A stretch of 58,319 nt of DNA from Pseudomonadota bacterium (GTDB lineage Bacteria > Pseudomonadota > Gammaproteobacteria > Steroidobacterales > Steroidobacteraceae): contig JAFEDP010000001.1 of NCBI GenBank assembly GCA_018241545.1, positions 1 to 58,319 on the forward strand, read 5' to 3'. The notes under the pieces are model-generated. The model was not told the DNA's origin and searched no databases. It saw only the letters and a list, made by a program, of their open reading frames with translations. Positions 9,268 to 56,881 of the stretch are shown here, one piece after another. Position numbers and translations under genes: made by a program. How positions within the stretch are numbered: position 1 is the first letter of the stretch; each line of letters opens with the position of its first letter.

Positions 9268-9274
9268 GGAGACG

Positions 9275-10429: not shown

Positions 10430-11083
<654 letters not shown>

Positions 11084-14172: not shown

Positions 14173-14229
14173 CGGCCCGCGCGACGCGGGGGACCCCGAC
14201 AGTCTGGCCGTGAGACGGGCAGCTACCGC

Positions 14230-18504: not shown

Positions 18505-18522
18505 CGCCGCCTGGGAGCACCC

Positions 18523-34379: not shown

Positions 34380-34937
34380 TCAGTGCACCGGGAACGTCTC
34401 GGTGCGGTAGCGCAGCGCACGCAGCTGCGTCGACCAGTACGCGCTCGGCCAGCCTGCCTTGCGCTTGAGTTGCGCGACAAAGTCCCTCGCCTGCGGCAGC
34501 TGCTTCCAGACGGACGGCAGGAACGTCGCCCGCGCAGCGCCCTCGACGAGCACGAGGCCGTCGATCCCGGGCTCGAGCGCGGCGATCAGCTCCTCCTCGC
34601 TGCGCACCTCGAGCGGCACGAGCGGCGTGAGCACGCTGATGACCACGCTCAGGCTGGCGGCCTCCGTCGCGGCGATGGGCGGGAAGCGCGGATCGTCGTA
34701 GGCGCTCGCCCACGAGTTGTGCCAGACGTCGGCCGCGAGCATGCGGTGCGCCTCGAGCGTTCCCCGGCAGCCGCGCAGTTCCGTCCCGAGCGTCAGTGTC
34801 GTGAACGTCGCTCCCAGCCGCGCGAGCGCTGCCGACCAGGAGCGCGGCGGCAGCGGCGCCGGCGCCTTGCGTGCGCCGCGCGCAATCGATTCGTGCGCCA
34901 GTTCGATCAGGCGCCGTCGCTCCCGCTCGTCAAGCAT
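34380..34937 (-). CDS. amrA: AmmeMemoRadiSam system protein A (AMMECR1 domain)
   Basis: 185 aa. GATFTTL...LRGCRGTL and DPRFPP AMMECR1 blocks. ATG overlaps the amrB stop by 8 nt (ATGCTTGA). Confidence 0.85.
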   Translation of the reverse strand: MLDERERRRLIELAHESIARGARKAPAPLPPRSWSAALARLGATFTTLTLGTELRGCRGTLEAHRMLAADVWHNSWASAYDDPRFPPIAATEAASLSVVISVLTPLVPLEVRSEEELIAALEPGIDGLVLVEGAARATFLPSVWKQLPQARDFVAQLKRKAGWPSAYWSTQLRALRYRTETFPVH

Positions 34938-35736
34938 CGTAAAAGCCGAAGGCCCCGTATCCCACGACGCGCGCGTGGTCGCCCGCCGTATCCCCGGAGC
35001 TGCACTGGTCGAGGAGCTCGACGCGCATGTGGTGCCGCCGAGCGGCCCGCAGCAGGCCGTTCACCGGCACGCTGCCGCACGCGTCGCTCCCGTCGAGCGT
35101 GGGTCGGGCGGCGAGGATTTCCGTTGCCGTCCGGGCGTCGCGCGCGCGCGCCGCTTCATAGGTGTGGTAGTGGCTGAGGTCGGAGCTCACGACGATCACG
35201 GTCTCCGGTCCGCCCCAGATCGCCTCGAGCATCGCCTCGACGTCCGTGGCGGTCGCCTCGCCCACCAGTACCGGGACGACCGGCGCGCCCGGAACGATCC
35301 GCTGCAGGAACGGCAGCTGGACCTCGAGGCTGTGCTCGCGCGCATGCGGTGCGTCAGCGACGATGACACCGCGCAGCGCGGCGAGCTGCGCGACGCCTGC
35401 CGCGTCGATCTCGGCGCGGCCGAGTGGCGTCGTGAAGGCCGTGGCCCGCGGCAGCGCGAGCCCGCGGAACCACTCGCGATGGCTCGGGCCCACGAGCACG
35501 ACCCGGCGGATTCGGGCCGCAACCGGCACCAGCGTGCGAAACGCGCGCCCGGCGACCTTACCGGAATACGGGTATCCGGCGTGCGGCACGATCAGCGCCT
35601 TCGGCGCCGGCCCGACCGGGACGGGCCCGGACAGGAGCGCGTCCAGCAGGGCGTGAAGCTCGTCCGGGTCGGCCGGGTAGAACAGTCCGGCGACCGCTGC
35701 CGGTCGGGCATCGACCCTCGTGGCGAACACGCGCAT
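34930..35736 (-). CDS. amrB: AmmeMemoRadiSam system protein B (Memo-like)
   Basis: Start MRVFATRVDARPAAVAGLFYP at 35736, inside the 594 aa track ORF 34930..36714. IVPHAGYPYSG, EHSLEVQLPFL and SSDLSHYH Memo-family metal-site blocks. Confidence 0.85.
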   Translation of the reverse strand: MRVFATRVDARPAAVAGLFYPADPDELHALLDALLSGPVPVGPAPKALIVPHAGYPYSGKVAGRAFRTLVPVAARIRRVVLVGPSHREWFRGLALPRATAFTTPLGRAEIDAAGVAQLAALRGVIVADAPHAREHSLEVQLPFLQRIVPGAPVVPVLVGEATATDVEAMLEAIWGGPETVIVVSSDLSHYHTYEAARARDARTATEILAARPTLDGSDACGSVPVNGLLRAARRHHMRVELLDQCSSGDTAGDHARVVGYGAFGFYDA

Positions 35737-35844
35737 GCATCGCACCGGATTGAAAGGACCCGAACGCTCCCCACATCCCTCCATGTGGGCCGCCCCCACC
35801 CGTGGCTGTTCGACTATATCGCCGCGCCGAGGCGCGCCAACATC

Positions 35845-36966
35845 GTGACTGAACGAACCGAGACCGCGCTGTCGACCGTAGTGGACACCCGCTACTGGCA
35901 TAGCGTCGGCGCCGGACGTGTGCAGTGCGATGCGTGTCCGCGCGCCTGCCGCCTGCACGATGGACAGCGGGGGCTGTGCTTCGTCCGCGGCGCGGAATCG
36001 GGTCGTGTGCGGCTCTACAGCTACGGTCGCTCGAGCGGATTCTGCGTCGATCCGATCGAGAAGAAGCCTCTCAACCACTTCCTGCCGGGCAGCGCCGTGC
36101 TGTCCTTCGGCACCGCCGGCTGCAACCTCGCCTGCAAGTTCTGCCAGAACTGGGACATGAGCAAGTCGCGCGAGATGGACACGCTCGCAGACAGTGCGAC
36201 GCCCGCGGAGCTCGCCGCCGCCGCGCAGCGGCTCGGCTGCGCTAGCATCGCCTACACGTATAACGATCCGACGGTGTTCCTCGAGTACGCCGTCGACGTC
36301 GCGCAGGCCGCGCACGAGCGCGGCGTCCGCAGCGTCGCCGTGACGGCCGGCTACATGCTGCCGGCGCCGCGCGCCGACTTCTTCAGCCACATGGACGCGG
36401 CGAACATCGACCTCAAGTCGTTCAGCGAGCGCTTCTACCGCGAGATCTGCGGCGCCGAGTTGCAGCCGGTCCTCGAGACTCTCGAGTACGTGCATAGCGA
36501 GACGTCCGTGTGGCTGGAGGTCACGACGCTGCTGATCCCGGGACTCAATGACTCCGATGCGGAAGTCGCAGCCCTCTGCGCCTGGGTCGCCGATCGTCTC
36601 GGCCCCGACGTGCCGCTGCACTTCACCGCCTTCCACCCGGACTGGAAGCTGCGCGACGTCCCGCCCACGCCGCTGGCAACGCTGCGGCGCGCGCGACGCA
36701 TCGGGCTCGACCACGGCTTGCGCTACGTCTACACCGGCAACGTCGTCGATCGCGAGGGCGGAAGTACCTGGTGCAGCGGATGCGGCGGCCAGCTGATCGG
36801 ACGCGATGGTTACGACATCGAGTCGTGGAACCTCGACGGCGCGGCACGCTGCCGGCGCTGCCGCACGGTCTGCGCGGGCGTCTTCGACGGTGCGCCGGGA
36901 CTGCGGGCGCCGGGACGCCGCGGTGTGAGGCTGGCCAGCGCGCGCGAGCGCGCAGGCGGTGCCTGA
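35845..36966 (+). CDS. amrS: AmmeMemoRadiSam system radical SAM enzyme
   Basis: C-terminal 373 aa of track ORF 34717..36966. CNLACKFCQNW (CX3CX2C radical SAM cluster) preceded by a CDACPRAC motif. C-terminal CSGC...CRRC zinc-ribbon-like pairs. Start GTG 35845 (alternative GTG 35785). Confidence 0.85.
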   Translation: MTERTETALSTVVDTRYWHSVGAGRVQCDACPRACRLHDGQRGLCFVRGAESGRVRLYSYGRSSGFCVDPIEKKPLNHFLPGSAVLSFGTAGCNLACKFCQNWDMSKSREMDTLADSATPAELAAAAQRLGCASIAYTYNDPTVFLEYAVDVAQAAHERGVRSVAVTAGYMLPAPRADFFSHMDAANIDLKSFSERFYREICGAELQPVLETLEYVHSETSVWLEVTTLLIPGLNDSDAEVAALCAWVADRLGPDVPLHFTAFHPDWKLRDVPPTPLATLRRARRIGLDHGLRYVYTGNVVDREGGSTWCSGCGGQLIGRDGYDIESWNLDGAARCRRCRTVCAGVFDGAPGLRAPGRRGVRLASARERAGGA

Positions 36967-36984: not shown

Positions 36985-37539
36985 TCAGCCGGCCTGGGGC
37001 CTCGCTAGCGCATCGATCATCTCGAGGTACTCGTGAAGGCCCGGCGCATTGAAGCCGGCGAGCTTGCCCTGGTCGTCCCAGTGGCGCAGACGCACCCCTT
37101 CCCGGAAGTGCGACTGCGCTTCGAACGCCGCCACCTCGGCCGCGGACATCGGACCGCCCTGCAACCGCAGCGTCAGCACTGATGCCGGACTCAACCGGCG
37201 CGCGTAGCTCGGGTCGGTGGCGCACAGGTAGCGCTTCGCGGCGACGTGGAGCGCGACGGGCTCGGATACCTCGGGCCCGAACCGCTGCGCGAGCCAGGCT
37301 CGACCGACGTCCTCGTGCCGGGCGTCGGCATGCCAGTCGTGGATGTCGGCGGGGACGTCGTCGAGCAGGTGGCCGATGTCGTGCAGCAGCGCCGCGATCA
37401 CGAGGCTCGCGGGCGCGCCCTCGGCGCGTGCGAAGTAGGCCGCCTGCAGCCCATGCTCGAGCATCGACACCGGCTCGCCGAAATAGGAGCCGGCGCCGCG
37501 TCGCGTATACAGGGCGGTGACCTCGCCGCTGACGGTCAT
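36985..37539 (-). CDS. HD-domain mixed-valent di-iron oxygenase, PhnZ/TmpB-like (C-P bond cleavage)
   Basis: Start MTVSGEVTALY at 37539, 184 aa. LEHGLQAA, ALLHDIGH, ARHEDVG and ALHVAAKRYL ligand-bearing blocks resemble PhnZ-type HD oxygenases. ATGA overlap with the upstream dioxygenase stop. Confidence 0.7.
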   Translation of the reverse strand: MTVSGEVTALYTRRGAGSYFGEPVSMLEHGLQAAYFARAEGAPASLVIAALLHDIGHLLDDVPADIHDWHADARHEDVGRAWLAQRFGPEVSEPVALHVAAKRYLCATDPSYARRLSPASVLTLRLQGGPMSAAEVAAFEAQSHFREGVRLRHWDDQGKLAGFNAPGLHEYLEMIDALARPQAG

Positions 37540-38678
37540 TGCGGCAGGTCCCGCCGCAGGACCGCAAGGCGGCTCAGGACGCTGTCGCGCGTCAGGTAGC
37601 ACCCCTGCAGGTGGCGCGGGAACCGGGCCGACGAGAACGCGGTCCGGCCGTGGAGCGTGCGCTGGTTGTCGAATACGACCAGATCGCCGCTGCCAAGGCG
37701 GGTGCGCACCTGGAAGCGCGGCTCGCGCAGTAGCAATGCGAAGCGGCGGTACGCTTCGTAGAACGTGCGCAGCTCTTCACCGGCCAGCGTCAGCGGCGCG
37801 ATCGAGCGGTTGTTGTAGTGCACCGCCTCGATCGCGCCGGTCGCGGACAGGCGGATCAGTGGCGTCTCCGAGTACAGCTCGGCGTCGCGCGACCGGTACA
37901 GGAACGGCACCGGTGTGCGCGCCAGGCGGTCGAACGCTTCCGGGGCCGTTGCGCGCAGGTGCTCCGCGATCGCGAACCCGTCCGCGAACAGGCTGTCACC
38001 GCCCTCTGGCGAGGCGACCAGCACGTGCAGTGCCTGGAAGCCCGGCACCGGGTTGCGGTACGGGTTGTCGGTGTGCAGGCCCAGTCCGAAGTCCGAGTAC
38101 GCCAGGTTCTCCGGCTGCGCAACGGAGCGCACGTCGAACAGCAGCCCATAGTTGGTCTCGGCGACGAAGCCCAGCAGCGCGGCTGCGTGCAGCAGCGCGC
38201 GGTCGCGCGCCGGCACCCCGTGGATGAACGCCAGCCCGTCCTGGGCCAGGCGCGTCAGCCAGTCGACGCGGGCGGCGCCGTCGTGCTCGATCTCGGCCAG
38301 CGTGCGCGCGGCGAAGAAGGTACGCGCATCGATGGCCGCGCCGTCGAGCCAGTGGCGCACCGCGAGTTCCGGGCGGCGCTCCGAGCGCGGGCGCGACTGG
38401 CCGTCGAGCCAGGCGAGGGCGAAACGGTCCTCGCGCGACTCCCCTTCCCAATTCACGACCAGCGCACCATCGTCGATCCGCACGACGCGCAGACGCGGCG
38501 TGGCCGGCACGTCGGCGATGTCGACGAGCCGCTGGCCGTTGCCGGGGTCGCGATCGCCCGGACAGTTGTCGCGGAGCCACAGGCTCGCGAATTCCGTCGC
38601 GCGGCCGTCGGACCATTGGATCCTCACGCCCTGCGCGTCCCAGGTGAACCGCGCCATCGACCCTAGCGCCTCGGCCAT
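37536..38678 (-). CDS. Fe(II)/2-oxoglutarate dioxygenase, gamma-butyrobetaine-hydroxylase-like (TmpA/PhnY-like) with N-terminal DUF971 domain
   Basis: Start MAEALGSMARFTW at 38678, inside track ORF 37536..38909. N-terminal IQWSDGRATEFASLWLRDNCP (DUF971/BBOX N-domain). TauD-fold core with GLHTDNPY (HxD facial triad) and FDNQRTLHGR. Confidence 0.75.
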   Translation of the reverse strand: MAEALGSMARFTWDAQGVRIQWSDGRATEFASLWLRDNCPGDRDPGNGQRLVDIADVPATPRLRVVRIDDGALVVNWEGESREDRFALAWLDGQSRPRSERRPELAVRHWLDGAAIDARTFFAARTLAEIEHDGAARVDWLTRLAQDGLAFIHGVPARDRALLHAAALLGFVAETNYGLLFDVRSVAQPENLAYSDFGLGLHTDNPYRNPVPGFQALHVLVASPEGGDSLFADGFAIAEHLRATAPEAFDRLARTPVPFLYRSRDAELYSETPLIRLSATGAIEAVHYNNRSIAPLTLAGEELRTFYEAYRRFALLLREPRFQVRTRLGSGDLVVFDNQRTLHGRTAFSSARFPRHLQGCYLTRDSVLSRLAVLRRDLPQ

Positions 38679-38703
38679 CGACCATTCCCCCCCTCGAACA
38701 TCG

Positions 38704-40032
38704 TCAGGCGCGACGCTGGTACCGGTAGAGCAGCAGGGCTGCGACCGCAGACGCCGCACTGACCGCTGCCAGCGCCGCAAACACGCCCTGCCAGCCGACC
38801 GCCACGGCGGCCCGGGCGACACCCGCGCCCGCCAGCACGCCGCCGAGGTAACCGATGCCGTCGATGATACCCGACGAGGTTGCTCCTCCCCGCTGCCCGC
38901 CGAAGTCAAGCGCCATCGCCCCGCCCAGATAGGAGTACGGGCCGAGCAGGCAGAACGCCACGACCCCGATCATGACCACCGCGGTCACCGGTGTGGCGCC
39001 GATGACCGGCAGCAGCGTAAGCACGACGAGCGCCAGTGCCGTCGCCGCGAGCCCGGCGAGCAGCAGCAGCGGCCTGCCGTGTCCACCGAGACGATCGCCG
39101 AGCCATCCGGTGACCAGCACCGACAGCGCGCCGACGCCCGGGAAGACCGCGCTCAGGCTCGCGGCCTGGGCCGTGCTGTAGCCGGCGGACGCCTGCAGAT
39201 AGACCGGGGTCCAGACGCTGAAGGCCTCCCGCACGATGGTGCAGCCGAAGGACAGCAGGCACACGAGGCCGAAGGCGGGGCTCGTCAGCAGCGGCCGGAA
39301 GATGCCCGCCAAGCCAGCCCGTCGGGCGCGTTCTCGGGCGTACAGGTTGCGGGGGTTGGGCAGCGCCCCGCGGTGACCGAGGTCCTCGCGGGACTCCCTC
39401 AGGAACAGCGCATTGGCGAGCAACAGCGAGCCTGCAACCGCGGCGGCGAACACGAACACGCCCCGCCAGCCGATGCCATGATCGATCAGTACGCCGATGG
39501 ACTGGCGCGCCGCCGCGTCGCCGACGAGGTAGCTGAGGCTCAGGATCCCCACGACCGTCCCGTGCGCGGAAAAGTCGAACCACTTGGAGCAGACCTTCAG
39601 CAGGCCGGCCCAGCCCGCCGACTGGGTCAGGCGGTTACCGATCCAGGCGATCGTGAACACCGGCAGGCTCGCACTGCCCGCGAACAGCAGCGTGAACGCC
39701 GTCGCGCCGCCGAGGCCGAGCAGGAAGCTGCGCCGCCCTCCCCACAGGTCACCCAGCCCCCCCAGCAGCAGCTTGCCGAGTGCGTAGGCCAGCACGCCGG
39801 CGGAATACACGGTGCCGAGGCGCACGATGGCCTGCGCAGCCGGCACGCCGTGCGATCCGAGATCCGCGACCAGCAGGGGCATCGCGGCGGAAAAGTTGGC
39901 GCGGCAGAAGTAGTACGCCGCATACCCGGCGAAGAGCAGCGCCACGGTCGACACCTGGCGCCCACGCAGCGCGCGGGCCTGCGTTCGCGCCCTCGCCTGC
40001 TCGAGCGCGTCTACCTCGTCGACCCCGCTCAC
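38704..40032 (-). CDS. MFS transporter, organophosphate/sugar-phosphate permease-like
   Basis: Candidate GTG start at 40032 (VSGVDEVD...), about 442 aa with 12 predicted hydrophobic segments. YAAYYFCRANFSAAMP resembles GlpT/UhpC-type N-termini. The track ORF extends to 40242, but that extension is Arg/Ala-rich. Confidence 0.7.
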   Translation of the reverse strand: MSGVDEVDALEQARARTQARALRGRQVSTVALLFAGYAAYYFCRANFSAAMPLLVADLGSHGVPAAQAIVRLGTVYSAGVLAYALGKLLLGGLGDLWGGRRSFLLGLGGATAFTLLFAGSASLPVFTIAWIGNRLTQSAGWAGLLKVCSKWFDFSAHGTVVGILSLSYLVGDAAARQSIGVLIDHGIGWRGVFVFAAAVAGSLLLANALFLRESREDLGHRGALPNPRNLYARERARRAGLAGIFRPLLTSPAFGLVCLLSFGCTIVREAFSVWTPVYLQASAGYSTAQAASLSAVFPGVGALSVLVTGWLGDRLGGHGRPLLLLAGLAATALALVVLTLLPVIGATPVTAVVMIGVVAFCLLGPYSYLGGAMALDFGGQRGGATSSGIIDGIGYLGGVLAGAGVARAAVAVGWQGVFAALAAVSAASAVAALLLYRYQRRA

Positions 40033-40053
40033 GGCTCCCCCTCGCGGCCCCGG

Positions 40054-40111
40054 CCGCAGCCTAGCACGCCGATCCTGCGCCAACCCCGGTGCCGGGGATG
40101 CTAGGCTGCGG
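40054..40111. promoter_or_regulatory. Nested inverted repeat in a divergent promoter region (candidate operator or leader structure)
   Basis: Perfect 13 nt arms CCGCAGCCTAGCA (40054-40066) and TGCTAGGCTGCGG (40099-40111), separated by 32 nt. The spacer contains an inner palindrome CCCCGG-TG-CCGGGG (40084-40097). Confidence 0.45.
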
Positions 40112-40129
40112 ACCCGCCGCACGCCCGGA

Positions 40130-40930
40130 GTGATGCGCACCATGACTTCCCCACCTCGGGCGCCCGTCGCTCTCGTCACCGGCGCATCGCGCGGCATCGG
40201 CGCCGCGGTGGCGGCGGCGCTGGCGGCGCGCGGGGTTCGCATCGCGCTGCACTACCGCTCGAACCACGCGGCGGCCCGGGCAACGCTGGCCTCGTTGCCC
40301 GACGCTGGGCATGTGCTGGTGCAGGCGGATCTTGCGGACGGTGCGGCCACCGCGGCCCTGTGGGACGAGGTCGCGGCGCGGCTCGGCGCCCCCGACATCG
40401 TGATCAACAACGCGGGCATCTTCGTCGACCACCCACCGCTGACCTCCAGCTACGACGACTGGCGCGAGGCGTGGCGGCTGACGCTCGCGACCAACCTCGT
40501 CGGCCCGGCCAACCTCGTTCTGCTCGCGGCGCAGTCGATGGCCGCGCGTCCGGCGGCCCGGGATGCAGCGTTCGGGCGCGGCCGGATCGTCAACGTCTCA
40601 TCGCGCGGCGCCTTTCGGGGCGAGCCGGACGCGCCCGCCTACGGGGCGAGCAAGGCGGGTCTCAACGCGCTGTCGCAGTCGCTGGCCAGGGCCGTGGCGG
40701 ACCGCGGCGTGTACGTCTTCGCCGTCGCGCCGGGTTGGGTCGGCACCGAGATGGCGACGGCGCATCTCAACGGCCCGGGCGGGGCGGCGATCCTCGCGCA
40801 GCACCCGCTCGGCCGCGTGAGCAGCGGCGAGGAGGTCGCCAACGCGATCGCCTACTGCGCGCTCGACGCGCCGGCGGCGATGACCGGGGCGATCATCGAC
40901 GTCAACGGCGCGAGCTACCTGCGAACCTGA
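40130..40930 (+). CDS. Short-chain dehydrogenase/reductase (FabG-like)
   Basis: 266 aa. TGASRGIG cofactor motif and YGASKAGLN catalytic YxxxK. Confidence 0.9.
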   Translation: MMRTMTSPPRAPVALVTGASRGIGAAVAAALAARGVRIALHYRSNHAAARATLASLPDAGHVLVQADLADGAATAALWDEVAARLGAPDIVINNAGIFVDHPPLTSSYDDWREAWRLTLATNLVGPANLVLLAAQSMAARPAARDAAFGRGRIVNVSSRGAFRGEPDAPAYGASKAGLNALSQSLARAVADRGVYVFAVAPGWVGTEMATAHLNGPGGAAILAQHPLGRVSSGEEVANAIAYCALDAPAAMTGAIIDVNGASYLRT

Positions 40931-41529
40931 TGGCGCCGACCGTCACGCGGCTATCCCGCATGCGCGACCTTCACCTGCGTTCGGCCCGGATCGGGGCCGG
41001 GATCTGGTCGCCGGACGACCTGGACCTCGCACTGGGACTGTGGGGGGACCCGCAGGTCGGGCGCTTCATTGGCGGGCCGTTCTCGCCGGCACAGGTGGCG
41101 GCGCGACTCGAACGAGAGGTCCGGCACCAGCGGACCCGTGGCATGCAGTACTGGCCGCTGTTCCTGCTGGACGACGGCGAGCACGTCGGGTGCTGCGGGG
41201 TCGCGCCGCATCACGACGACGGCCCGGTGCTGGAATTCGGGTTCCACCTGCGCCGCGCCCACTGGGGCTGCGGCTACGTGCGCGAGATCGGCCCGCTCGT
41301 GATCCGCGCGGCCTTCGACCGCCTCCGCGCAGCCGCATTGTACGCCGGGCACCACCCCGACAATCATGCATCGCGGCGGGTGCTCCAGTCGCTGGGGTTC
41401 CGCTACACGCACGACGAGTACTACCCGCCCACGGCTGTCGTCGAACCCTGCTACCGGCTCGTGCCGAGCGACGCGCCCGCCGTGCCGCCCGGGTGCGCGG
41501 ACCTCAGCCCTCGAGACGCTCGAGGGTGA
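40930..41529 (+). CDS. GNAT-family N-acetyltransferase
   Basis: ATG at 40930 forms TGATG with the SDR stop. 199 aa. LEFGFHLRRAHWGCGYVRE resembles the acetyl-CoA-binding motif A region. Lies inside track ORF 40360..41529. Confidence 0.65.
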   Translation: MAPTVTRLSRMRDLHLRSARIGAGIWSPDDLDLALGLWGDPQVGRFIGGPFSPAQVAARLEREVRHQRTRGMQYWPLFLLDDGEHVGCCGVAPHHDDGPVLEFGFHLRRAHWGCGYVREIGPLVIRAAFDRLRAAALYAGHHPDNHASRRVLQSLGFRYTHDEYYPPTAVVEPCYRLVPSDAPAVPPGCADLSPRDARG

Positions 41530-43597
41530 CGGGCGTGCCGTTCAGGGCTGCATTGCCGCTCGGCGCGTCGAGGCGCTCTGGGTCGGTCAGATCGTTGTAG
41601 CTCGCCCCGCGTACCGAGTGCGCGCGCTGCAGGCGCGCGCCGGCGCGCCCATGGCCGAAGCCATGTGGTAGGCAGACCACGCCGGGCTGCAGTGCATCGC
41701 TGGCGCGCACCTCGACCTCAATCGCGCCGGTTCGCGACCGGACCCGCGCGCGTTCCCCGTCAACGAGCCCGCGGGCTGCGAGGTCGTCCGGGTGCACGTG
41801 CAGCTCGTGCCGCGTCTTGCCCTTCACGAGACGGGGTGCGTTGTGCATCCACGAGTTGTTGCTGCGCACGTGACGGCGTCCGATCAGCGCCAGCTCGCCC
41901 GGTCGCAGCGGCGCCGCCGGCTCCGCCTCGAGGCGCGCGACCTCGTCGACCAGCAGCGGCGGCGCGCACTCGATCATCCCACTCGCCGTCTCGAGGCGGC
42001 GCAGCAGGGACGACTGCAGGGGTCCCATGTCGACGCCGTGCGGAGCCGCCTCGAGCGCCGCGAGGTCCAGCCCACTGCTGCCGCGCGCCAGCCCGGCGGC
42101 GATCAGCGTGCGCGGCTCCGGCAGCGGCGACCAGGGCTTGCCCGCTGCCTGCGCGTAGGCGTGCGCGACGCCGGCGATGATCTCCCAGTCGGCGCGCTCC
42201 GCGTCCGCGCGCGACCGCAGCGGGGCATTGAGGCGCGCGACGCGCCGCACGGCGAAGCCGTTGAAGACGGTGTCGTAGTGGTACTGCGTCAGCGGCGACG
42301 CGGGTGGCAGGATGAGGTGCGCATGTCGCGTCGTCTCGTTGACGTAGATGTCGATGGCGACGAAGAAATCGAGGGAAGCGAGGGCCGCATCGAGGGCCGC
42401 GCCCGCCGGCGTCGAGAGCACGGGGTTGCCGGCACAGGTGAACAGGGCACGGACGCGGCCCGGCCCGGGAGTCGTGATCTCTTCGGCCAGCGCCGCCACC
42501 GGCAGCTCGCCGGCGAACTCCGGCAGCGAGCGGACGCGGCTGCGCCAGCGGTCACGGTGCCCCTTCGACGTCCCCGGGCCCGTCACCGGGATGGCCGGTT
42601 CGTTCGGCAGCACCCCGCCAGGCCGGTCAAGCTGGCCGCAGTACAGATTGATGAGCTGGATGATCCACTGGCACAGGGAGCCGTAGGCCTGGGTCGACAA
42701 CCCCATGCGGCCGTAGACGCATGCGCGGGACGCGCCGTACAGCTCGCGCGCCAGCCGCTCGATCGTGCCCGCGGGCACGCCGCTGCGCGCGGCCGCCTGA
42801 GCGGCCGTCACGCCGCCGGCCCGCTCAAGCGCCGTGTCCAAGCCGTTCAACCGGCCGGCGTAGCCCGCGAGGCGCGGCGGTCCACAGGCGCGCACGGCCT
42901 CGAGCAGGCCTCGCAGGAACCAGGCGTCCGTCCCGGGCCTGATCGCCACGTGCTCGCTCGCGATGGCGGCCGTCTCGGTGCGGCGCGGATCCACGACGAC
43001 CAGGCGACCGCGGCGGACCAGCGCCTCGAGGCGCCGGGCGATGCCCGGCGCCGTCATCAGACTGCCGTTCGATGCCACGGGGTTGGCGCCCAGCATCAGC
43101 ATCCAGTCGGTGTGATCGACGTCCGGGACCGGCACGAGCAGCTGGTGGCCGTACATCGCCCACGCCACGAGCTGGTGCGGCCACTGGTCCACTGACGACG
43201 CGGAATAGACATTGCGCGTCCGGATGAGACGCAGCAGCGACGGCAGGTACGCGTGGTGCCCGAAATGATGGACGACGGGGTTGCCGAGATAGGCAGCCAC
43301 CGCATCGGCGCCGTGCTCGCGCTGGGCCGCGGCCAGGCGCTGACCCGCCTCGGCGAAGGCCTCGTCCCAGCTCACTTCCTCCCAGTCCCGCCCGTGCCGC
43401 CGCAGCGGCCGCCGCAGGCGGTCCGGATCGGCCTCCAGATCGAGAATGGCGACGCCCTTCGGGCAGAGGTGACCACGACTCAGCGGGTCCTCGGCGTCAC
43501 CGCGGATCGCCGCCAGCTGCCCATCGTCGATGCGGAACTCGAGGCCGCAGATGGCTTCGCACAGGGGGCAGGCGCGGAATCGGCGCTCGCTCGTCAT
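41504..43597 (-). CDS. Molybdopterin (MopB-family) oxidoreductase, cytoplasmic, with N-terminal Fe-S motif
   Basis: Start MTSERRFRACPLCEAICGLEF at 43597, inside the 900 aa track ORF. 697 aa. CPLCEAIC...HLCPKG cluster motif, no signal peptide, no in-frame TGA. Confidence 0.85.
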   Translation of the reverse strand: MTSERRFRACPLCEAICGLEFRIDDGQLAAIRGDAEDPLSRGHLCPKGVAILDLEADPDRLRRPLRRHGRDWEEVSWDEAFAEAGQRLAAAQREHGADAVAAYLGNPVVHHFGHHAYLPSLLRLIRTRNVYSASSVDQWPHQLVAWAMYGHQLLVPVPDVDHTDWMLMLGANPVASNGSLMTAPGIARRLEALVRRGRLVVVDPRRTETAAIASEHVAIRPGTDAWFLRGLLEAVRACGPPRLAGYAGRLNGLDTALERAGGVTAAQAAARSGVPAGTIERLARELYGASRACVYGRMGLSTQAYGSLCQWIIQLINLYCGQLDRPGGVLPNEPAIPVTGPGTSKGHRDRWRSRVRSLPEFAGELPVAALAEEITTPGPGRVRALFTCAGNPVLSTPAGAALDAALASLDFFVAIDIYVNETTRHAHLILPPASPLTQYHYDTVFNGFAVRRVARLNAPLRSRADAERADWEIIAGVAHAYAQAAGKPWSPLPEPRTLIAAGLARGSSGLDLAALEAAPHGVDMGPLQSSLLRRLETASGMIECAPPLLVDEVARLEAEPAAPLRPGELALIGRRHVRSNNSWMHNAPRLVKGKTRHELHVHPDDLAARGLVDGERARVRSRTGAIEVEVRASDALQPGVVCLPHGFGHGRAGARLQRAHSVRGASYNDLTDPERLDAPSGNAALNGTPVTLERLEG

Positions 43598-43638
43598 GCC
43601 CAACCTCCACCGCGGCGCAGGCCGGATGCCCGTCCCGC

Positions 43639-44088
43639 TCAGTAGTCGGACTCTCCCGGGGGGATTCCCGCGGCGCGCATGAACTCGGCCCGCTGGCGCT
43701 GGATATTGAGCGTCGGGGTCGCGCGCGCCGCGTGCACTTCCGCGGCCGTGTACGGCTGCGTGGCGGACGCCGCCTCGGGCGCGAACTCCCCGACGCACCA
43801 GTTCATCACGTTCGCGAGGGCGTGATCCGAGAGCTGCGAATTGGCGACGCCCGGGAAGTGCAGCAGCAGCTCGCGGCCGCCTTGCGCGCTCAGGAACCGC
43901 GGCATGGTCTCGCGCAGTGCCGGCACGCGGTGGCGCACGCCGGTGCCCGCCTGGCCGTGGCAGCCACCGCAGAAGAGCACGTAGTTCTGGCGCACGTCGC
44001 TCGACTCGGGCCGCTCGAGCGCGCGGGGCGCGCCCGCGACGCACGCCAGGACCAGCGCCGACGCACCCGCGACGGCCCGGCGTTTCAC
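43639..44088 (-). CDS. Monohaem c-type cytochrome (paralogue 2)
   Basis: GTG at 44088 in a GTGA overlap with the upstream stop. Signal or lipobox-like VKRRAVAGASALVLACVAG. CGGCH haem motif. 149 aa. Confidence 0.75.
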   Translation of the reverse strand: MKRRAVAGASALVLACVAGAPRALERPESSDVRQNYVLFCGGCHGQAGTGVRHRVPALRETMPRFLSAQGGRELLLHFPGVANSQLSDHALANVMNWCVGEFAPEAASATQPYTAAEVHAARATPTLNIQRQRAEFMRAAGIPPGESDY

Positions 44089-44579
44089 GGCGGCAGTCCG
44101 GCGACGACCGTAGCGCGATGCTCGCGCACCGCGCTGCCATCGAGCTCGTGGACACGCTCCGCGGCGATGTCCGCCGCTGCCAGCGGTGCGGTAGCCGCCG
44201 GGGCATGGCCGATATCGAACACGACGAAGTTCAGTGCCGCCGCGAGCGTCGCGTCGTCGAAGCGCCCGAAGTCCGGCATCTTGAAGTTGTAGTGCCGCTC
44301 GCCGATGACGATGTCGCCGAACATGCCGTACAGCACCGTCATCGCGAGCTGTCGCCGCCCCTCGGCAATGCCGGCGAAGCGCGCCGGATACTCGGTCAGC
44401 GGTGGGGCGAGGCCGGGCGTGCCGGCGCCGTTCGCGCGGTGGCACACGGCGCAGTTGGCCTGGAACGTGGCTGCGCCGTCAGGGTAGCGAGGTTGGTCGT
44501 CCGCCCGGGCTACGCCCGCGGCCAGCGCCCAGCCAGCCAGCAGCAGCGGCCACGCAGCCCGGCCGAACGGCCCGTTCAC
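44085..44579 (-). CDS. Monohaem c-type cytochrome (paralogue 1)
   Basis: GTG at 44579 in a GTGA overlap with the mauA stop. Signal peptide AAWPLLLAGWALAAGVARA. CAVCH haem motif. 164 aa. Confidence 0.75.
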   Translation of the reverse strand: MNGPFGRAAWPLLLAGWALAAGVARADDQPRYPDGAATFQANCAVCHRANGAGTPGLAPPLTEYPARFAGIAEGRRQLAMTVLYGMFGDIVIGERHYNFKMPDFGRFDDATLAAALNFVVFDIGHAPAATAPLAAADIAAERVHELDGSAVREHRATVVAGLPP

Positions 44580-45103
44580 TTCCCGGCGACACCCAGGACG
44601 ACCGACACCGAGCAGTGGTAGTTCGGATTGTCGTTGGCCATGCACCAATTGACGTCGTTGTTGAGCGACATCCGGTACATGGGCCGTTCGCCCTCGTTAC
44701 GGTTGCAGAAGCAGCTGCCGCAGCTCGTCTTACCGCAGCAGTCGTTGTACGACATGATGTAGTCGCGGCCGTCCGCCGGATTGTGGCAGGTGCCGATCCA
44801 GGTGATCGGCGACTGCTGCGTCCCGGGGGGGCAGCTCGAGGAGCTGCCGCCGCAGCAGCCGCACAGGAATCCGTCGATCGCGCAGTACTTCCAGTACTCG
44901 CAGGAGTTCGGGTCGGCCGCGGCCGCCGCCTTGGCGCCGGGCTCTGCCGCGAGCGCCTGCGAGCCGCGCATCACGGGCAGCAGCGGCAGCAGCGCGGCCC
45001 CCGTCAGGACGTGGCCGAAGGCGGACAGGAATCCGCGGCGCGACGTCCGCCGCGCGAGCCCGCGCGACACGCGCTCGGCCCAATGGTCAAACCGCTGCTG
45101 CAT
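44576..45103 (-). CDS. mauA: TTQ-dependent amine dehydrogenase light (small) subunit
   Basis: Start MQQRFDHW at 45103. Tat signal RRTSRRGFLSAF. Cys-rich mature part CEYWKYCAIDGFLCGCCGG...CPPGT...ITWIGTCHNP...DCCG...VNWCMAN...YHC closely parallels methylamine dehydrogenase light chains, including both cofactor tryptophans. Confidence 0.9.
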   Translation of the reverse strand: MQQRFDHWAERVSRGLARRTSRRGFLSAFGHVLTGAALLPLLPVMRGSQALAAEPGAKAAAAADPNSCEYWKYCAIDGFLCGCCGGSSSSCPPGTQQSPITWIGTCHNPADGRDYIMSYNDCCGKTSCGSCFCNRNEGERPMYRMSLNNDVNWCMANDNPNYHCSVSVVLGVAGK

Positions 45104-45105
45104 CG

Positions 45106-46251
45106 TTACGGGTTCAGGAGGTACCACGAGGACTGCCCCAGTTTGGGTTCCACGTACAGCTGCCGGCCGGTCGTCGCGTCCATGACGATCAGGTCGGAGT
45201 TCTCGGTCATCAGGAACAGCAGCGGCTTGTCATCCTGCGATACCTGGATCGCCTGGACGCCACCGTGTGCCTTGGCGTCGATCGGCCAGCGCCCGAACCG
45301 GCGATGGGTCGCGCCGTCGAACGCCCATACCTCGGTGCCGGTGACCTTGTGGCTGCCATCGCCACCGCGGTGGACCTGCAGATAGAGGCGGCCGGTCTTG
45401 CGGTGCAGCGCCAGCACCTGGCCGCCGCCCGGACGCCACTTGCCGCGTTCGGCCGCGGTCGCCGTCGACCACACCGGTGCAAACGCCGGCTCGGCGCCTG
45501 ACAGGTCGACGCCGTAGACGTCACCGAGGAACGACAGGAACACGATCCCGGAGTCGCTGAGCGCGCCCTGCACGAAGATCGGGTCCTTGTCCACGCTGAA
45601 GAACGGCGCGGACATCTTGCGCGACACCTCGTGCCCGCCGTCATCGAGCGTGACGCTCAGCAGGCGACCGGTCTCGCACAGCGACGTGACGCGGCGCGGG
45701 CCGGAAGGAATCACCAGCACGCAGCCGTCGGTGTCGACCTCGCCGACGACGGACTTCTTCGGCACGTCGACGACCGAGAACGAGGTCGCCGGCGACAGGT
45801 TGGTGATGTACACCAGCCGCTGGTCGGGGCTGAATGCGACATTGTGAAGCGGGATCGTCTGCGCATGACGGGACGGCAGGATGACCTCGCCGGTGATCGC
45901 CAGCGTCGAGTTGTCGGTGAACTCGAGAACGTCGGTGCGCGCGCCGTGGCTTCCGCGCGCGAAATACGTCGTCGCGACCGCCGTCGTCTTGCCGTCCGCC
46001 GAGAACGCCACGCCCGGCCAGAATCCCGTGTCTATCTGTCCGAGCTGGCGATGTGAATCGCCGTCGTACAGGTAGAGACGCATATCGGTCTCATTGTTGT
46101 TCGACTCGTCGAACACCCACACCCAATGGGGAGAGGCTGGCGGCAGCTTTGCGAGCGTCAGATGCTCGGCCGCGAGCGGGGGTGGCGCAGCGGCTTCCGC
46201 TACGCACGCCGTGAGGAGCGCAAGGCACGCGCCCCAGGTTGTCCGCCACAT
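45106..46251 (-). CDS. mauB: Amine dehydrogenase heavy (large) subunit, 7-bladed beta-propeller
   Basis: Start MWRTTWGACLALLTACVAEA at 46251, inside the 783 aa track ORF. Blocks ARGSHGARTDVLEF, AERGKWRPGGGQ and IQVSQDDKPLLF parallel Paracoccus MauB as I recall it. Stop lies 2 nt before mauA. Confidence 0.85.
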   Translation of the reverse strand: MWRTTWGACLALLTACVAEAAAPPPLAAEHLTLAKLPPASPHWVWVFDESNNNETDMRLYLYDGDSHRQLGQIDTGFWPGVAFSADGKTTAVATTYFARGSHGARTDVLEFTDNSTLAITGEVILPSRHAQTIPLHNVAFSPDQRLVYITNLSPATSFSVVDVPKKSVVGEVDTDGCVLVIPSGPRRVTSLCETGRLLSVTLDDGGHEVSRKMSAPFFSVDKDPIFVQGALSDSGIVFLSFLGDVYGVDLSGAEPAFAPVWSTATAAERGKWRPGGGQVLALHRKTGRLYLQVHRGGDGSHKVTGTEVWAFDGATHRRFGRWPIDAKAHGGVQAIQVSQDDKPLLFLMTENSDLIVMDATTGRQLYVEPKLGQSSWYLLNP

Positions 46252-46359
46252 CGTTGGCCCCCCCGATCGCCGTCGCCGTAGTGTGCCACAGGCACGCGTT
46301 TGATGGCACTCACCGGTCGATGGACCGGCGCCCGGTGGCACGCGATACTCGATGTCATC

Positions 46360-47631
46360 ATGCAATCGAACATCGATTCCGGCGCCGGGCGCGTGTTTTA
46401 CGGCTGGAAGGTCCTCGCAGCGCTGTTCACCGCGGGGTTCCTGGTCTACGGCGGCGGGCTGTACTGCTTCGTGCTGTTCGTGACGCCCCTGACCCAGGAG
46501 TTCCACTGGAGCCGGGCCGCCACGGGCGGCATCGTCTCGGCCTTCTGGCTCAGCGCCCCGCTGCTGATCGCCGGTGGACTCGCCATGCGGCGCTTCGGCG
46601 TGACCCGCATGCTCGCGGTCGGAATCGTGGTCGAGGCGCTGTGCGTGCTGCTCCTCACGCGCGTCACGAGCTTGCCCGAGATGATCCTGCTGCGCGCCAC
46701 GATGGGCTTCGGCAAGATCATGTTTGCCGTCACGATCCCAGTGACCATCGCGGTGTGGTTTCGCCGCCGCTTTGGATTCGCGCTCGGCATCGCCTGGGCC
46801 GGGTGGCACGTCGGCGGCATGGTGCTCGCCCCGGTGACCCAGGCCATCATCGAGCGCTACGGCTGGCGCGGCGCGTGCACGGCGCTCGGGATCTCGCTGC
46901 TCGTCTTCGCGCTCGGCCCGATCCTCTGGGTGCAGCGGATCCGCTCGCCCGCGGCGCTGGGCCTCGAACCCGACGGGGATCCGCCGCCGGCCGCCGCCTC
47001 GACTCCCGATGCGCCGGCGGCCTCGATAGCCGCGCCGGTCCCGTCCGGCACGCTGGAAGACCTGCTGAAGGCGCCGCTGTTCTGGCTGATCGCGGCCGCC
47101 ACGCTCTGCTTCTACATGACGTACGGCGGCGTCCTGGCGCATCAGGGCGCGATCGTCGAGGCGGCCGGATACTCGTCGGGACTCGCCTCGATCGTGCTCG
47201 GGTCGACGGCCGGGTTCGCTGCCGTCGGCGGGCTGGCCACCGGCTGGATGGTCGACCACTGGCGACTGGCGCGGGTGGGGCTGGCAATGCACGTGATGCT
47301 GATCGCCGGCGCGCTGTCCATGCTCAGCGTTCTGTACCTGCCTTCGCTCGCCGGCCTGTGCGCGTATGCCGCGTGCTTCGGCATCATGATCGGCGGATCC
47401 GACATCTTCTTCGTCAAGCTCATGCGCGAGCGCTTCCCGCACGTCAACATCGATCACGCCTACAGCGTGTGGTACTGCACCGAGCTCGGCACGCTGTGGC
47501 TGTCCGGGATCGTGGCCGGCTGGATCTACGACACGACCGGGAACTACGCGCGCACGCTGGTCGTGCTATCGGCCAGCGCCGGCGTCGCCACCGTGCTCAC
47601 GATGGCCGCGCTTCGCCACCGGTCGCGGTGA
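46360..47631 (+). CDS. MFS transporter (oxalate/formate-antiporter-like subfamily)
   Basis: ATG at 46360 (MQSNIDSGAGRVFYGWKVL), about 423 aa with 12 hydrophobic segments. Divergent from mauB across a 108 nt gap. Confidence 0.8.
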   Translation: MQSNIDSGAGRVFYGWKVLAALFTAGFLVYGGGLYCFVLFVTPLTQEFHWSRAATGGIVSAFWLSAPLLIAGGLAMRRFGVTRMLAVGIVVEALCVLLLTRVTSLPEMILLRATMGFGKIMFAVTIPVTIAVWFRRRFGFALGIAWAGWHVGGMVLAPVTQAIIERYGWRGACTALGISLLVFALGPILWVQRIRSPAALGLEPDGDPPPAAASTPDAPAASIAAPVPSGTLEDLLKAPLFWLIAAATLCFYMTYGGVLAHQGAIVEAAGYSSGLASIVLGSTAGFAAVGGLATGWMVDHWRLARVGLAMHVMLIAGALSMLSVLYLPSLAGLCAYAACFGIMIGGSDIFFVKLMRERFPHVNIDHAYSVWYCTELGTLWLSGIVAGWIYDTTGNYARTLVVLSASAGVATVLTMAALRHRSR

Positions 47632-48929
47632 GCACGGTGGTCACGCCGCTGGAACAGGACGCCCCGGGCTGCCTCTATCCGCTGACGGCGACGCCCGCGC
47701 TCACACTGCCGCGCCTGCGCGGCGACGTGCGCGTGGACGTGGCGGTGGTGGGCGGCGGCTACACCGGACTCTCGGCCGCGCTGCACCTCGCGGAGCGCGG
47801 CCGCCCGGTGGCGTTGCTGGAGGCCTTCGAGCCGGGCTGGGGCGCCGCCGGCCGCAACGGTGGCCAGGTCAACGCCGGGATGAAGCACGAGCCGGACGCG
47901 GTGGAACGCGCGCTCGGCCCGGTGCACGGCCCGCGCGTCGTCCAGCTGGCGGGGAGCGCCCCGCAGCTGCTGTTTGAGCTGATCGAGCGTCACGGGATCG
48001 ACTGCGAGGCCGTGCGCGCGGGGACATTGCGAGCCGTCTACCAGCCGCGCCAGCTGGCGACGCTGCGGGCCTCGGCCGGCCAGTGGCACCGTCGCGGCGT
48101 GGAGCTCGAGCTGTGGGACGCCGCTCGGCTCGCCGAGGTCACCGGTTCCCGCCGCTATGTCGGCGCGACCTTCGACCGGCGCGGCGGGGCCGTGAATCCG
48201 CTCAGCCTGGCGCGTGGCCTCGCCCAGGCGGCGCAGCGCCGCGGGGCGGCAGTCTTCGGCGAGTCCCGGGCCCTGCGCCTCGAGGCGGCTCGGCCCGGCT
48301 GGCGCATCCATACCGAGGGCGGTGCAGTCACCGCCGACGCGGTCATCATCGCCACCGACGGCTACAGCGACGGCCTGTGGCCGGGCCTACGCACGAGCAT
48401 CGTCCCGATCTACAGCTCGATCATCGCGACCGAACCGCTGCCGGCACAGTTGCGCGCATCCATACTGCCGGGCGGCCCGGTGCTGTACGAGGCCGGCAAC
48501 GTCACCGTCTACTACCGCTGCGACGCCGCGGGACGCCTGCTGATGGGGGGTCGCGGGCTGCAGCGGCGCGCGACGCAGCGCGCCGACTACGAGCACCTCG
48601 TAACCTACGCGCAGCGGCTCTGGCCGGCCCTGTCGGGAGTGCGCTGGACCCACTGGTGGAACGGCCAGTTCGCGCTGACGCCCGACTTCTACCCGCGCCT
48701 GCATGCGCCTGCGCCGGGCGTGTACGTCGGGCTGGGTTACAGCGGCCGCGGCGTGGCCCTGGGCACCGCCCTGGGGGCCGAACTCGCGGCGGCGGCGACG
48801 GGCACGCCGCTCGCTGCGCTGTCGCTGCCGGTCACGCCGATCCCGGCGCTGCGCTTTCACCGCTACTGGCGGCTCGGCGTCGCCGCCGGCGTCGCCATCG
48901 GGCGCGTGCGCGACCGTCTCGGTCGTTAG
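47628..48929 (+). CDS. FAD-dependent amine/amino-acid oxidoreductase (DAO family, PuuB/OrdL-like)
   Basis: GTG at 47628 in a GTGA overlap with the MFS stop. VAVVGGGYTGLSAALHLAERG dinucleotide fold and GAAGRNGG block. C-terminal part of the 896 aa track ORF. Confidence 0.8.
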   Translation: MSTVVTPLEQDAPGCLYPLTATPALTLPRLRGDVRVDVAVVGGGYTGLSAALHLAERGRPVALLEAFEPGWGAAGRNGGQVNAGMKHEPDAVERALGPVHGPRVVQLAGSAPQLLFELIERHGIDCEAVRAGTLRAVYQPRQLATLRASAGQWHRRGVELELWDAARLAEVTGSRRYVGATFDRRGGAVNPLSLARGLAQAAQRRGAAVFGESRALRLEAARPGWRIHTEGGAVTADAVIIATDGYSDGLWPGLRTSIVPIYSSIIATEPLPAQLRASILPGGPVLYEAGNVTVYYRCDAAGRLLMGGRGLQRRATQRADYEHLVTYAQRLWPALSGVRWTHWWNGQFALTPDFYPRLHAPAPGVYVGLGYSGRGVALGTALGAELAAAATGTPLAALSLPVTPIPALRFHRYWRLGVAAGVAIGRVRDRLGR

Positions 48930-49516: not shown

Positions 49517-50638
49517 TCAGAAGCGGATGACCTGGCGTACGCCGTGGCCGTCCGCGAGGCGGTCGAAGCCGGCATTGATCTCGTCCAGCGTCAGCGTCGA
49601 GGTCAGCAGTCGATCGACCGGCAGCCGGCCCTGCCGGAACCAGTCGATGAACCGCGGGATGTCGCGCTCGGGATCCGCACTGCCGAGGTAGCTGCCCCGC
49701 AACGTTCGCTCCTCGGCGACCAGGCTCAGCTGCGGCACCGGCAGCACCGCCTTCGGATGAGCCAGCCCGGCGGAGACCGTCATGCCGCCGCGACGAGTGA
49801 TGCGATAGGCGAGCTCGAGCGCGGCGGTCGCGCCGGCCATCTCGAACGCGTAGTCCGCGCCCCCGCGGGTCGCCTCGCGCACCCGTTCCGCTACGTCCGG
49901 ATCGGCCGCATTCCACGCATGCGTCGCGCCGAGCGACCGCGCCAGAGCGAGCTTGTCCTCGGACAGGTCGACGGCGATGCGGATCTCAGCACCGGCCGCG
50001 CGCGCGCCGAGCAGCGCCGCGAGTCCAACGCCGCCGAGTCCGACGACGGCGACGCGCGCGCCGGGCGTCACCTGCGCCGTGTTCACGACTGCGCCGACGC
50101 CGGTGACCACCGCGCAGCCGAATAGCGCCGCGTGCTCGAACGGCAACGCGGGATCGACGCGCACCAGCGACCGGCGCGAGACGGTGGCGTGGTCGGCGAA
50201 CGCGGAGACACCGAGGTGATGGTTGAGCGTGGTTGCCGCCGCCAGGCGCCGGTGGCCGCCAAGCAGGGTGCCGGCCCCGTTGCTCGCGGCGCCCGGCTCA
50301 CACAGCGCGGGTCGCCCGTGCAGACAGGGCTCGCAGGACCGGCAACTCGGCACGAACGCCGCGACGACGTGGTCGCCCCGGCGCAGGTCGACCACGCCCT
50401 CGCCTACCGCCTCCACCGTCCCGGCGCATTCGTGTCCGAGCACCATCGGCAGCGGCCGCGGCCGGTTGCCGTCGATCACCGACAGGTCCGAGTGGCACAG
50501 GCCCGCCGCGCGCACCGCGACCAGCACCTCCCCCGGACCCGGCGGCTCCAGGTCGACCCGCTCGATGGCCAGCGGGCGCGACTGCACGTACGGGCGCGGC
50601 AAGCCGCTCGCCGACAGCACCGCGGCGCGGATCTTCAT
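49517..50638 (-). CDS. Zinc-dependent alcohol dehydrogenase (MDR family)
   Basis: Start MKIRAAVLSA at 50638, inside track ORF 49517..50968. GLCHSDLSV and GHECAGTVEAVG zinc motifs. VVGLGGVGLAA NAD fold. Confidence 0.9.
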   Translation of the reverse strand: MKIRAAVLSASGLPRPYVQSRPLAIERVDLEPPGPGEVLVAVRAAGLCHSDLSVIDGNRPRPLPMVLGHECAGTVEAVGEGVVDLRRGDHVVAAFVPSCRSCEPCLHGRPALCEPGAASNGAGTLLGGHRRLAAATTLNHHLGVSAFADHATVSRRSLVRVDPALPFEHAALFGCAVVTGVGAVVNTAQVTPGARVAVVGLGGVGLAALLGARAAGAEIRIAVDLSEDKLALARSLGATHAWNAADPDVAERVREATRGGADYAFEMAGATAALELAYRITRRGGMTVSAGLAHPKAVLPVPQLSLVAEERTLRGSYLGSADPERDIPRFIDWFRQGRLPVDRLLTSTLTLDEINAGFDRLADGHGVRQVIRF

Positions 50639-56742: not shown

Positions 56743-56881
56743 GGACTGCCTCCGAGCGGACCGGCCTGCTCCGGTGCTTGCCGGTTCGGGCACGAAGTGT
56801 GGACGCGACCCTGCCGGTCGCGCAACGTGGACCCGGGGTTCCATTGCGTCGCGAGGGCCCGGTGTGCGATCAAGTGCGACC

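Follow-up and report, generated by a model that had tools for sequence, protein, structure and literature searches.

An aromatic amine dehydrogenase-lineage operon with adjacent subunit genes and no mauE or mauD nearby in a Steroidobacteraceae genome

The closest described relatives of the system considered here are two gene clusters for amine dehydrogenases that carry the cofactor tryptophan tryptophylquinone (TTQ). In the aauBEDA cluster of Alcaligenes faecalis, which encodes aromatic amine dehydrogenase (AADH; PDB 2AGL, 2AGY), the aauE and aauD genes (mauE/mauD) lie between the genes for the two subunits; this cluster reportedly lacks mauG and a cupredoxin gene and is said to have a gene for a small monohaem cytochrome c after aauA. 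The mauFBEDACJGMN cluster of Paracoccus denitrificans encodes methylamine dehydrogenase (MADH), which belongs to the same two-subunit TTQ family, and includes mauF, mauE, mauD, the amicyanin gene, mauJ, mauG, mauM, and mauN. We analyzed a 58,319-nucleotide stretch of DNA (hereafter the window; positions 1 to 58,319 of contig JAFEDP010000001.1, assembly GCA_018241545.1, from a Pseudomonadota bacterium assigned to the Steroidobacteraceae), in which genes for a dehydrogenase heavy chain and light chain are followed by genes for two cytochromes c, here called c1 and c2, and for an oxidoreductase of the MopB family. Both subunits find their best match in the A. faecalis enzyme, but unlike aauBEDA the window has no mauE or mauD between the subunit genes or anywhere in its 58 kb. 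Compared with P. denitrificans, the operon shows the reverse content: it has none of the accessory genes listed above and instead carries c1 and c2, which the mau cluster lacks.

We consider it about 75% probable that the locus encodes a functional periplasmic TTQ primary-amine dehydrogenase of the AADH lineage, with mauE and mauD supplied in trans and with the MopB gene as a neighbor. The enzyme family is known, and uncultured bacteria throughout a large clade share the gene order of this operon; what is new is the organization. In the proposed mechanism, the heavy and light subunits would both be exported, and the disulfides of the light subunit would be made by MauE and MauD encoded elsewhere in the genome, possibly backed by the general Dsb system. 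TTQ would then be completed by a factor that has no gene next to any AADH-type cluster. We infer both the substrate class and the electron route: the enzyme would convert a primary amine to an aldehyde and ammonia, and electrons would pass to the co-translated small cytochromes c, with c1 acting as an ordinary His/Met electron carrier.

Lineage of the subunits and gene order of related clusters

Profile searches placed the two subunits in the heavy- and light-chain families to which the original prediction had assigned them (Table 1). Heavy chains of AADH and MADH were the top PDB matches of the heavy chain. Against the solved structures, the heavy chain scored 167 bits with the A. faecalis AADH large subunit and 137 bits with MADH, and the light chain scored 181.7 bits with the A. 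faecalis AADH small subunit and 124 bits with MADH. With the AADH match ahead of the MADH match for each subunit, the sequence comparisons place the locus in the AADH (aau) lineage and not in the methylamine (mau) lineage. The NCBIfam equivalog models for MADH both remained below their cutoffs, with 180.8 bits against a cutoff of 196.85 and, for the heavy-chain model TTQ_MADH_Hv, 156 bits against 454, so that the window heavy chain is divergent even in comparison with its A. faecalis counterpart. Identity to the P. denitrificans subunits is 40% for the light chain and 30% for the heavy chain.

The light chain has the features expected of a TTQ subunit. Its 14 cysteines correspond position for position to those of the A. 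faecalis AADH small subunit, with 10 of them invariant over the whole family alignment, and it carries the DVNWCMAN motif, as AADH does. In an alignment of 13 sequences that includes P. denitrificans MauA, the twin-arginine residues R22-R23 and the two TTQ tryptophans, W102 and W153, are invariant, and the tryptophans align with the AADH tryptophan positions. The catalytic residues D77, D121, and Y162 are likewise invariant as far as P. denitrificans MauA. The active-site residues of MADH are Asp32, Asp76, Tyr119, and Thr122; the Thr122 position is Ser165 in the clade of the window light chain, a conservative change. These alignments uphold the earlier description of a TTQ-type dehydrogenase with a Tat signal, 14 cysteines, and both cofactor tryptophans.

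Direct reading of the sequence also confirmed the gene order and junctions that had been described: heavy chain, light chain, two cytochrome genes coupled through GTGA, a spacer, and MopB. The heavy-chain and light-chain genes meet at TAA-CG-ATG, a 2-nt gap, GTGA overlaps join light chain to c1 and c1 to c2, and the spacer of 41 nt between c2 and MopB has GGAGG ahead of the MopB ATG. The exact sequence of the window light chain has no database record, and homologues 89-98% identical to it were used instead. Compared with three or four relatives, the ratio of nonsynonymous to synonymous substitution rates (dN/dS) is 0.20-0.30 for the heavy chain, 0.04-0.17 for the light chain, 0.15-0.26 for c1, 0.17-0.38 for c2, and 0.19-0.20 for MopB. 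All five genes are intact and under purifying selection. A scan over positions 41000-46700 gave no candidate promoter and just two weak candidate terminators, both on the wrong strand, and is uninformative in DNA with 70% G+C.

We surveyed 80 species-level genomic loci with light chains 56-93% identical to that of the window, onto which reference proteins were mapped. Gene calling in their flanks, based on GC3 (G+C content at third codon positions), served only as a guide for Pfam submission and gave some spurious antisense open reading frames (ORFs). The heavy- and light-chain genes are adjacent in 42 of these loci, mostly in Steroidobacteraceae-like and unclassified proteobacterial metagenome-assembled genomes (MAGs). 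In the other 38, mauE and/or mauD separate the subunit genes; Burkholderia, Caballeronia, and Paraburkholderia are among these, as are lineages that are more distant. In a neighbor-joining tree, light chains of the adjacent type fall approximately into one large clade of Steroidobacteraceae-like MAGs, plus a few independent cases. The original prediction knew of no characterized cluster with the five-gene order. Adjacent subunit genes are found in more than half of the loci, and the order that ends in MopB is limited to loci with light chains at least 89% identical to the window's.

After the light-chain gene, 78 of the 80 loci have a homologue of c2, and c1 is present in 53. A search for MauG-like or amicyanin-like genes within 10 kb was negative at all 80 AADH-type loci; its sensitivity was adequate, as the MauG query picked up a cytochrome c peroxidase (CCP)-family gene of the window (E 4e-31). 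The survey thus does not support the original statement that mauG, and usually a cupredoxin gene, are part of characterized mau/aau clusters. In annotated plasmid records, clusters with the order heavy chain, MauE, MauD, light chain, cytochrome c, cytochrome c occur in Cupriavidus, Chimaeribacter (where the sixth gene is annotated "hypothetical protein"), a P. aeruginosa plasmid, Paracoccus sp. SMMA_5, and Haematobacter, and the Burkholderia clusters too have the cytochrome pair while mauE and mauD sit between the subunit genes. The uncharacterized clusters of Burkholderia, Caballeronia, and Cupriavidus (for example on plasmid p1 of C. pinatubonensis HN-2) share with the window the two cytochromes, their order, and the 4-nt overlaps, with light chains 64-67% identical, c1 43% identical (in the Cupriavidus cluster), and c2 36% identical. 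Unlike the window, they have mauE and mauD between the subunit genes and an aldehyde dehydrogenase gene, not MopB, at the end. In contrast, the true mau clusters of P. denitrificans and Indioceanicola lack c2 and contain mauF, mauJ, a gene for MauG or a cytochrome c peroxidase, and the napG/napH-like mauM/mauN; the P. denitrificans cluster also has amicyanin. The two-cytochrome tail and the absence of a linked mauG or cupredoxin gene are thus traits of the AADH family and not peculiar to the window. The proposal that the locus represents a distinct subclass with a cytochrome-based electron exit is not supported, as the cytochrome pair is general in AADH-type clusters, including those that keep mauE and mauD.

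Another locus, L010 (positions 7971-8276 of a Sphaerotilus sulfidivorans plasmid), has a light-chain fragment of about half length, 67% identical, before two cytochrome c genes, and no heavy chain, MauE, or MauD is annotated there. Unlike the window, it looks like a genuinely decayed AADH-type cluster.

Location of the mauE and mauD genes

The absence of mauE, mauD, and a cupredoxin gene from the operon, as originally described, extends to the window as a whole. Searches of the 58 kb by tblastn with Paracoccus and Cupriavidus references detected no MauE, MauD, or amicyanin. With profile hidden Markov models of MauE (49 sequences) and MauD (55 sequences), the best match in the window had an E of 0.26 (6 bits), compared with 218-398 bits for positive controls. 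Among the 42 adjacent-type loci, 11 have mauE-mauD nearby, either upstream of the heavy-chain gene (nine loci, mostly divergent) or in an adjacent second cluster (two loci). At the GTDB MAG loci L084 and L090, a heavy-light pair without mauE/mauD stands directly beside a complete heavy-MauE-MauD-light-c2 cluster, an independent example in which one set of helpers apparently serves two dehydrogenases.

The closest relatives, with light chains 89-93% identical to the window's, were searched with the MauD of locus L012, and matches lay on contigs that bear near-identical operons. Contig JANYAE010000052.1 of GCA_025355105.1 has a complete heavy-MauE-MauD-light-c2 cluster (L094, 36975-57583) and, ~48 kb away, a heavy-light-c1-c2 cluster with a light chain 93% identical to the window's (L011, 85422-105943). 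These two clusters are old paralogues, with light chains 55-57% and heavy chains 39-40% identical. In the SZAS-85 MAG, MauD P0127 is on a contig of 1,274,942 bp, and locus L001, which has the five-gene order, is on a contig of equal size. The 1.32-Mb contig_19645 has the five-gene order with a light chain 91% identical (L103, 167363-183887) and, ~32 kb away, a stand-alone mauE-mauD pair with no heavy- or light-chain gene beside it (L101, 135409-148017). This pair keeps the CGC motif of MauE and the CPVC motif of MauD, has a dN/dS of 0.23-0.40, and occupies the syntenic place of the complete cluster L094. The comparison indicates that this genome has lost the dehydrogenase of the complete cluster and kept its helpers. 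Because they were kept after the loss of the dehydrogenase that they once flanked, the helpers are likely to serve the remaining enzyme in trans, and this is the best available evidence for such an arrangement. The L101 pair is flanked by phenylacetate-pathway-like genes (PaaZ-like, enoyl-CoA hydratase, and AMP-ligase) and by MgtE/Nramp; at exactly this place, the sister genome has a full cluster made up of cytochrome P450 and major facilitator superfamily (MFS) genes, the heavy-MauE-MauD-light-c2 genes of L094, and monooxygenase, DUF2783, and MBL-hydrolase genes.

The disulfide helpers are thus encoded in trans in all three of the close relatives examined, on the same contig and ~32 to 48 kb away where both clusters could be placed. 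That maturation factors might be encoded in trans was one of two alternatives offered in the original prediction; it holds for these relatives and is extended to the source genome by analogy. If synteny holds, the mauE-mauD pair would lie ~20-35 kb past the right end of the window and thus outside the sequence analyzed. According to a 2026 preprint, MauE is a general disulfide oxidase that resembles DsbB in its action and can be functionally interchanged with it (bioRxiv 10.64898/2026.03.05.709764). With such an activity, MauE could plausibly act at a distance or be backed up in part by DsbB.

The MopB gene and an unlikely alternative, a self-sufficient enzyme

The MopB protein is predicted to be a cytoplasmic oxidoreductase that binds bis-molybdopterin guanine dinucleotide, from an uncharacterized family. 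As read from the sequence, there is no space for a signal peptide ahead of its Fe-S motif, which begins at residue 10. All NCBIfam equivalog models scored far below cutoff, including the formate dehydrogenase alpha subunit (185 bits against 666) and NasC (149 against 1100), and the protein reads Asp-Gln where formate dehydrogenase of the Rhodobacter capsulatus type has the Mo-ligand Cys-His. A formate dehydrogenase or nitrate reductase that would handle a C1 product was rejected on the basis of these scores and the replacement of Cys/Sec-His by Asp-Gln.

MopB follows c2 only in the window, L100, L001/L014, L002, and L103, all with light chains at least 89% identical; in L100, where the light chain is 98% identical, the contig is cut inside the MopB gene. 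In L011, a gene for an acetyl-CoA hydrolase/transferase on the opposite strand lies between c2 and MopB, so MopB must have its own promoter there. Elsewhere, the gene after c2 encodes an aldehyde dehydrogenase (in Burkholderiaceae), an amidohydrolase, a pyrroloquinoline quinone (PQQ) dehydrogenase, a multicopper oxidase, or a convergent TonB-dependent receptor. In Deinococcus and Streptomyces, full-length MopB homologues (43-51% identical) are encoded by single genes, and the 5-kb flanks examined on their replicons contain no annotated amine dehydrogenase genes. Synteny therefore rejects MopB as a conserved member of the operon, and the suggestion that it performs a coupled Mo-dependent step is not supported. 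MopB may be co-transcribed with the operon in the lineage of the window, but it is probably a lineage-specific neighbor that takes no functional part in amine oxidation by the dehydrogenase.

Several observations weigh against a dehydrogenase served by helpers in trans with MopB as a bystander. No mauE or mauD was found in the fetched flank of 31 of the 42 adjacent-type loci, whose enzymes may be independent of these genes; the presence of mauE and mauD in the source genome is argued from its relatives; MopB recurs after c2 in at least four related genomes; and the 41-nt gap, which has no terminator-like site, allows co-transcription of MopB. With the absence of mauE and mauD from the 58-kb window, the first and last of these points could suit the other alternative of the original prediction, a self-sufficient, distinct subclass of enzyme that matures without MauE/MauD through the general Dsb system, as the interchangeability of MauE with DsbB would permit, and that works with the downstream MopB on the aldehyde or another product, as its position in place of the Burkholderiaceae aldehyde dehydrogenase might suggest. 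We regard such an enzyme as unlikely. No MopB gene is found downstream in 78 of the 80 surveyed loci, the gene is cut off from c2 in L011, and the homologues in Gram-positive bacteria and Deinococcus are isolated genes. The aldehyde would be made in the periplasm, but MopB is predicted to be cytoplasmic, and MopB enzymes are not known to oxidize aldehydes. In addition, purifying selection has maintained mauE and mauD in the closest genomes, even in one that has lost the second dehydrogenase.

Cytochromes, completion of TTQ, and neighboring genes

The two cytochromes are paralogues, as had been proposed, although distant ones with weak but significant similarity (BLASTP 27% identity, E 7e-8). 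The Met101 ligand of c1 is conserved in 54 of 55 homologues. In c2, the CxxCH motif is conserved in 78 of 79 homologues and its histidine in all 79, but the position of the axial Met-Pro of c1 is Phe-Pro in the window protein and Val in 74 of the 79. A search for another distal ligand in c2 found no other Met or His conserved among the homologues. No Pfam or NCBIfam family matched c2 at threshold; its AlphaFold model (mean predicted local distance difference test score 81.5) has a class I cytochrome fold, with Thermus cytochrome c552 as the best fold match (template modelling score 0.6-0.67). The loss of the axial Met is compatible with a ligand-accessible haem.

In every cluster examined, c2 was seen only where MauG is lacking, and MauG only where c2 is lacking. 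As a haem protein that may be ligand-accessible and that accompanies nearly every one of these MauG-less TTQ enzymes, c2 is a candidate for the haem enzyme that completes TTQ in AADH-type dehydrogenases, carrying out the second oxygenation and the Trp-Trp crosslink as a minimal replacement for MauG. We hold this role to be a speculative one, with the odds well against it. The plain reading, in which c2 is an electron acceptor that replaces amicyanin, is more likely.

The original remark that mauG is missing is correct for the operon but needs qualification for the window, which has a di-haem gene of the CCP/MauG family 27 kb away in a different operon (Table 1). Its product could be imagined as a trans-acting MauG that completes TTQ for this dehydrogenase, given its CCP_MauG fold (match to PF03150, E 2e-51), its 32% identity to P. 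denitrificans MauG, and a Tyr aligned with Tyr294, a haem ligand in MauG. However, it scores 148 bits against ordinary peroxidases and 137 bits against MbnH compared with 89.6 bits against MauG, and has Phe where MauG has the hole-hopping residue Trp199. The gene is part of a separate operon that also encodes a TonB-dependent receptor, a di-haem cytochrome, and a beta-helix/cytochrome fusion protein, and the 80 related clusters have no such di-haem gene within 10 kb. We thus find it improbable that this gene provides a linked MauG. The enzyme matches MbnH (PDB 6E1C) nearly as well as it does peroxidases, and its operon looks like a MauG/MbnH-style protein-modifying system.

The remaining possibility, that the operon is a decaying duplicate of a standard cluster elsewhere, with accessory genes lost and on its way to becoming a pseudogene, could draw on the second, complete B-E-D-A-c2 cluster that relatives do have, but it is rejected by the dN/dS of 0.04-0.38 and the invariant catalytic and cofactor residues, and is further opposed by the age of the two paralogous clusters, the intact and translationally coupled ORFs, the persistence of the adjacent arrangement in at least 40 species, and the L101/L103 genome, which lost the complete cluster and kept the window-type one.

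Table 1 Features of the window discussed in the text.
Feature	Position	Strand	Product	Family or domain match
Heavy chain	45106..46251	-	381 amino acids, N-terminal signal peptide	PF06433, E 2e-42, residues 44-374
Light chain	44576..45103	-	175 amino acids, twin-arginine leader	PF02975, E 3.6e-53
Cytochrome c1 (cyt1)	44085..44579	-	164 amino acids, monohaem class I, CAVCH	PF00034, E 1.4e-8
Cytochrome c2 (cyt2)	43639..44088	-	149 amino acids, monohaem, CGGCH	below Pfam threshold
MopB oxidoreductase	41504..43597	-	697 amino acids	Molybdop_Fe4S4, Molybdopterin, Molydop_binding
MFS transporter	46300..47631	+	divergent from operon	PF07690
Flavin adenine dinucleotide-dependent oxidoreductase (DAO family)	47610..48929 (start approximate)	+		PF01266, E 5.8e-68
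Operon with TonB-dependent receptor and the next three genes	14125..20061	+		
Di-haem cytochrome c	16712..17353	+		
CCP/MauG-family di-haem enzyme	17350..18504	+		PF03150, E 2e-51
Beta-helix/NosD-like protein	18523..20061	+	C-terminal cytochrome c domain	
Urease genes	7564..11083	+	alpha subunit, UreG-like	
AmmeMemoRadiSam trio	34930..36966	- and +	Memo-like and AMMECR1 (-), radical SAM enzyme (+, divergent)	
HD-domain, dioxygenase, and MFS genes	36985..40242	-		
HD-domain protein	36985..37602	-		
Dioxygenase	37536..38669	-	gamma-butyrobetaine hydroxylase-like/TauD family	
MFS transporter	38704..40242	-		
Zn-dependent alcohol dehydrogenase	49517..50560		just past DAO gene	
PQQ-dependent alcohol dehydrogenase	54847..57024	-		

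Two genes divergent from the operon recur in related genomes. The MFS transporter gene is at the same position in L001, L011, L019, L100, and L103. The DAO-family gene is the most widely conserved neighbor of adjacent heavy-light clusters, and most loci with adjacent subunit genes have a homologue of it upstream of the heavy-chain gene, in divergent orientation. The best NCBIfam match of its product is L-pipecolate oxidase, with 313 bits against a cutoff of 600. The urease genes and those for the PQQ-dependent and Zn-dependent alcohol dehydrogenases are possible candidates for the downstream handling of aldehyde or alcohol products. Elsewhere in the window, the genes for the HD-domain protein and the dioxygenase resemble the PhnY/PhnZ or TmpA/TmpB systems for oxidative C-P bond cleavage of aminophosphonates, and long antisense ORFs overlap the real genes of the AmmeMemoRadiSam trio, as is usual in DNA of this G+C content.

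The proposed link to molybdenum chemistry, which was the source of the earlier excitement about this locus, is not upheld. What the analysis offers instead concerns the enzyme family. In a large clade of mostly uncultured Gammaproteobacteria, the genes carry the annotation "methylamine dehydrogenase" although they are of the aromatic-amine lineage, and in this clade a heavy-light pair without mauE and mauD is normal and not the sign of a broken cluster. The relatives suggest that MauE and MauD can serve a TTQ enzyme from a distance, which fits the general, DsbB-like role in disulfide oxidation recently proposed for MauE. For the formation of TTQ in AADH-type enzymes that have no linked MauG, the conserved, Met-less c2 may be considered a concrete candidate.

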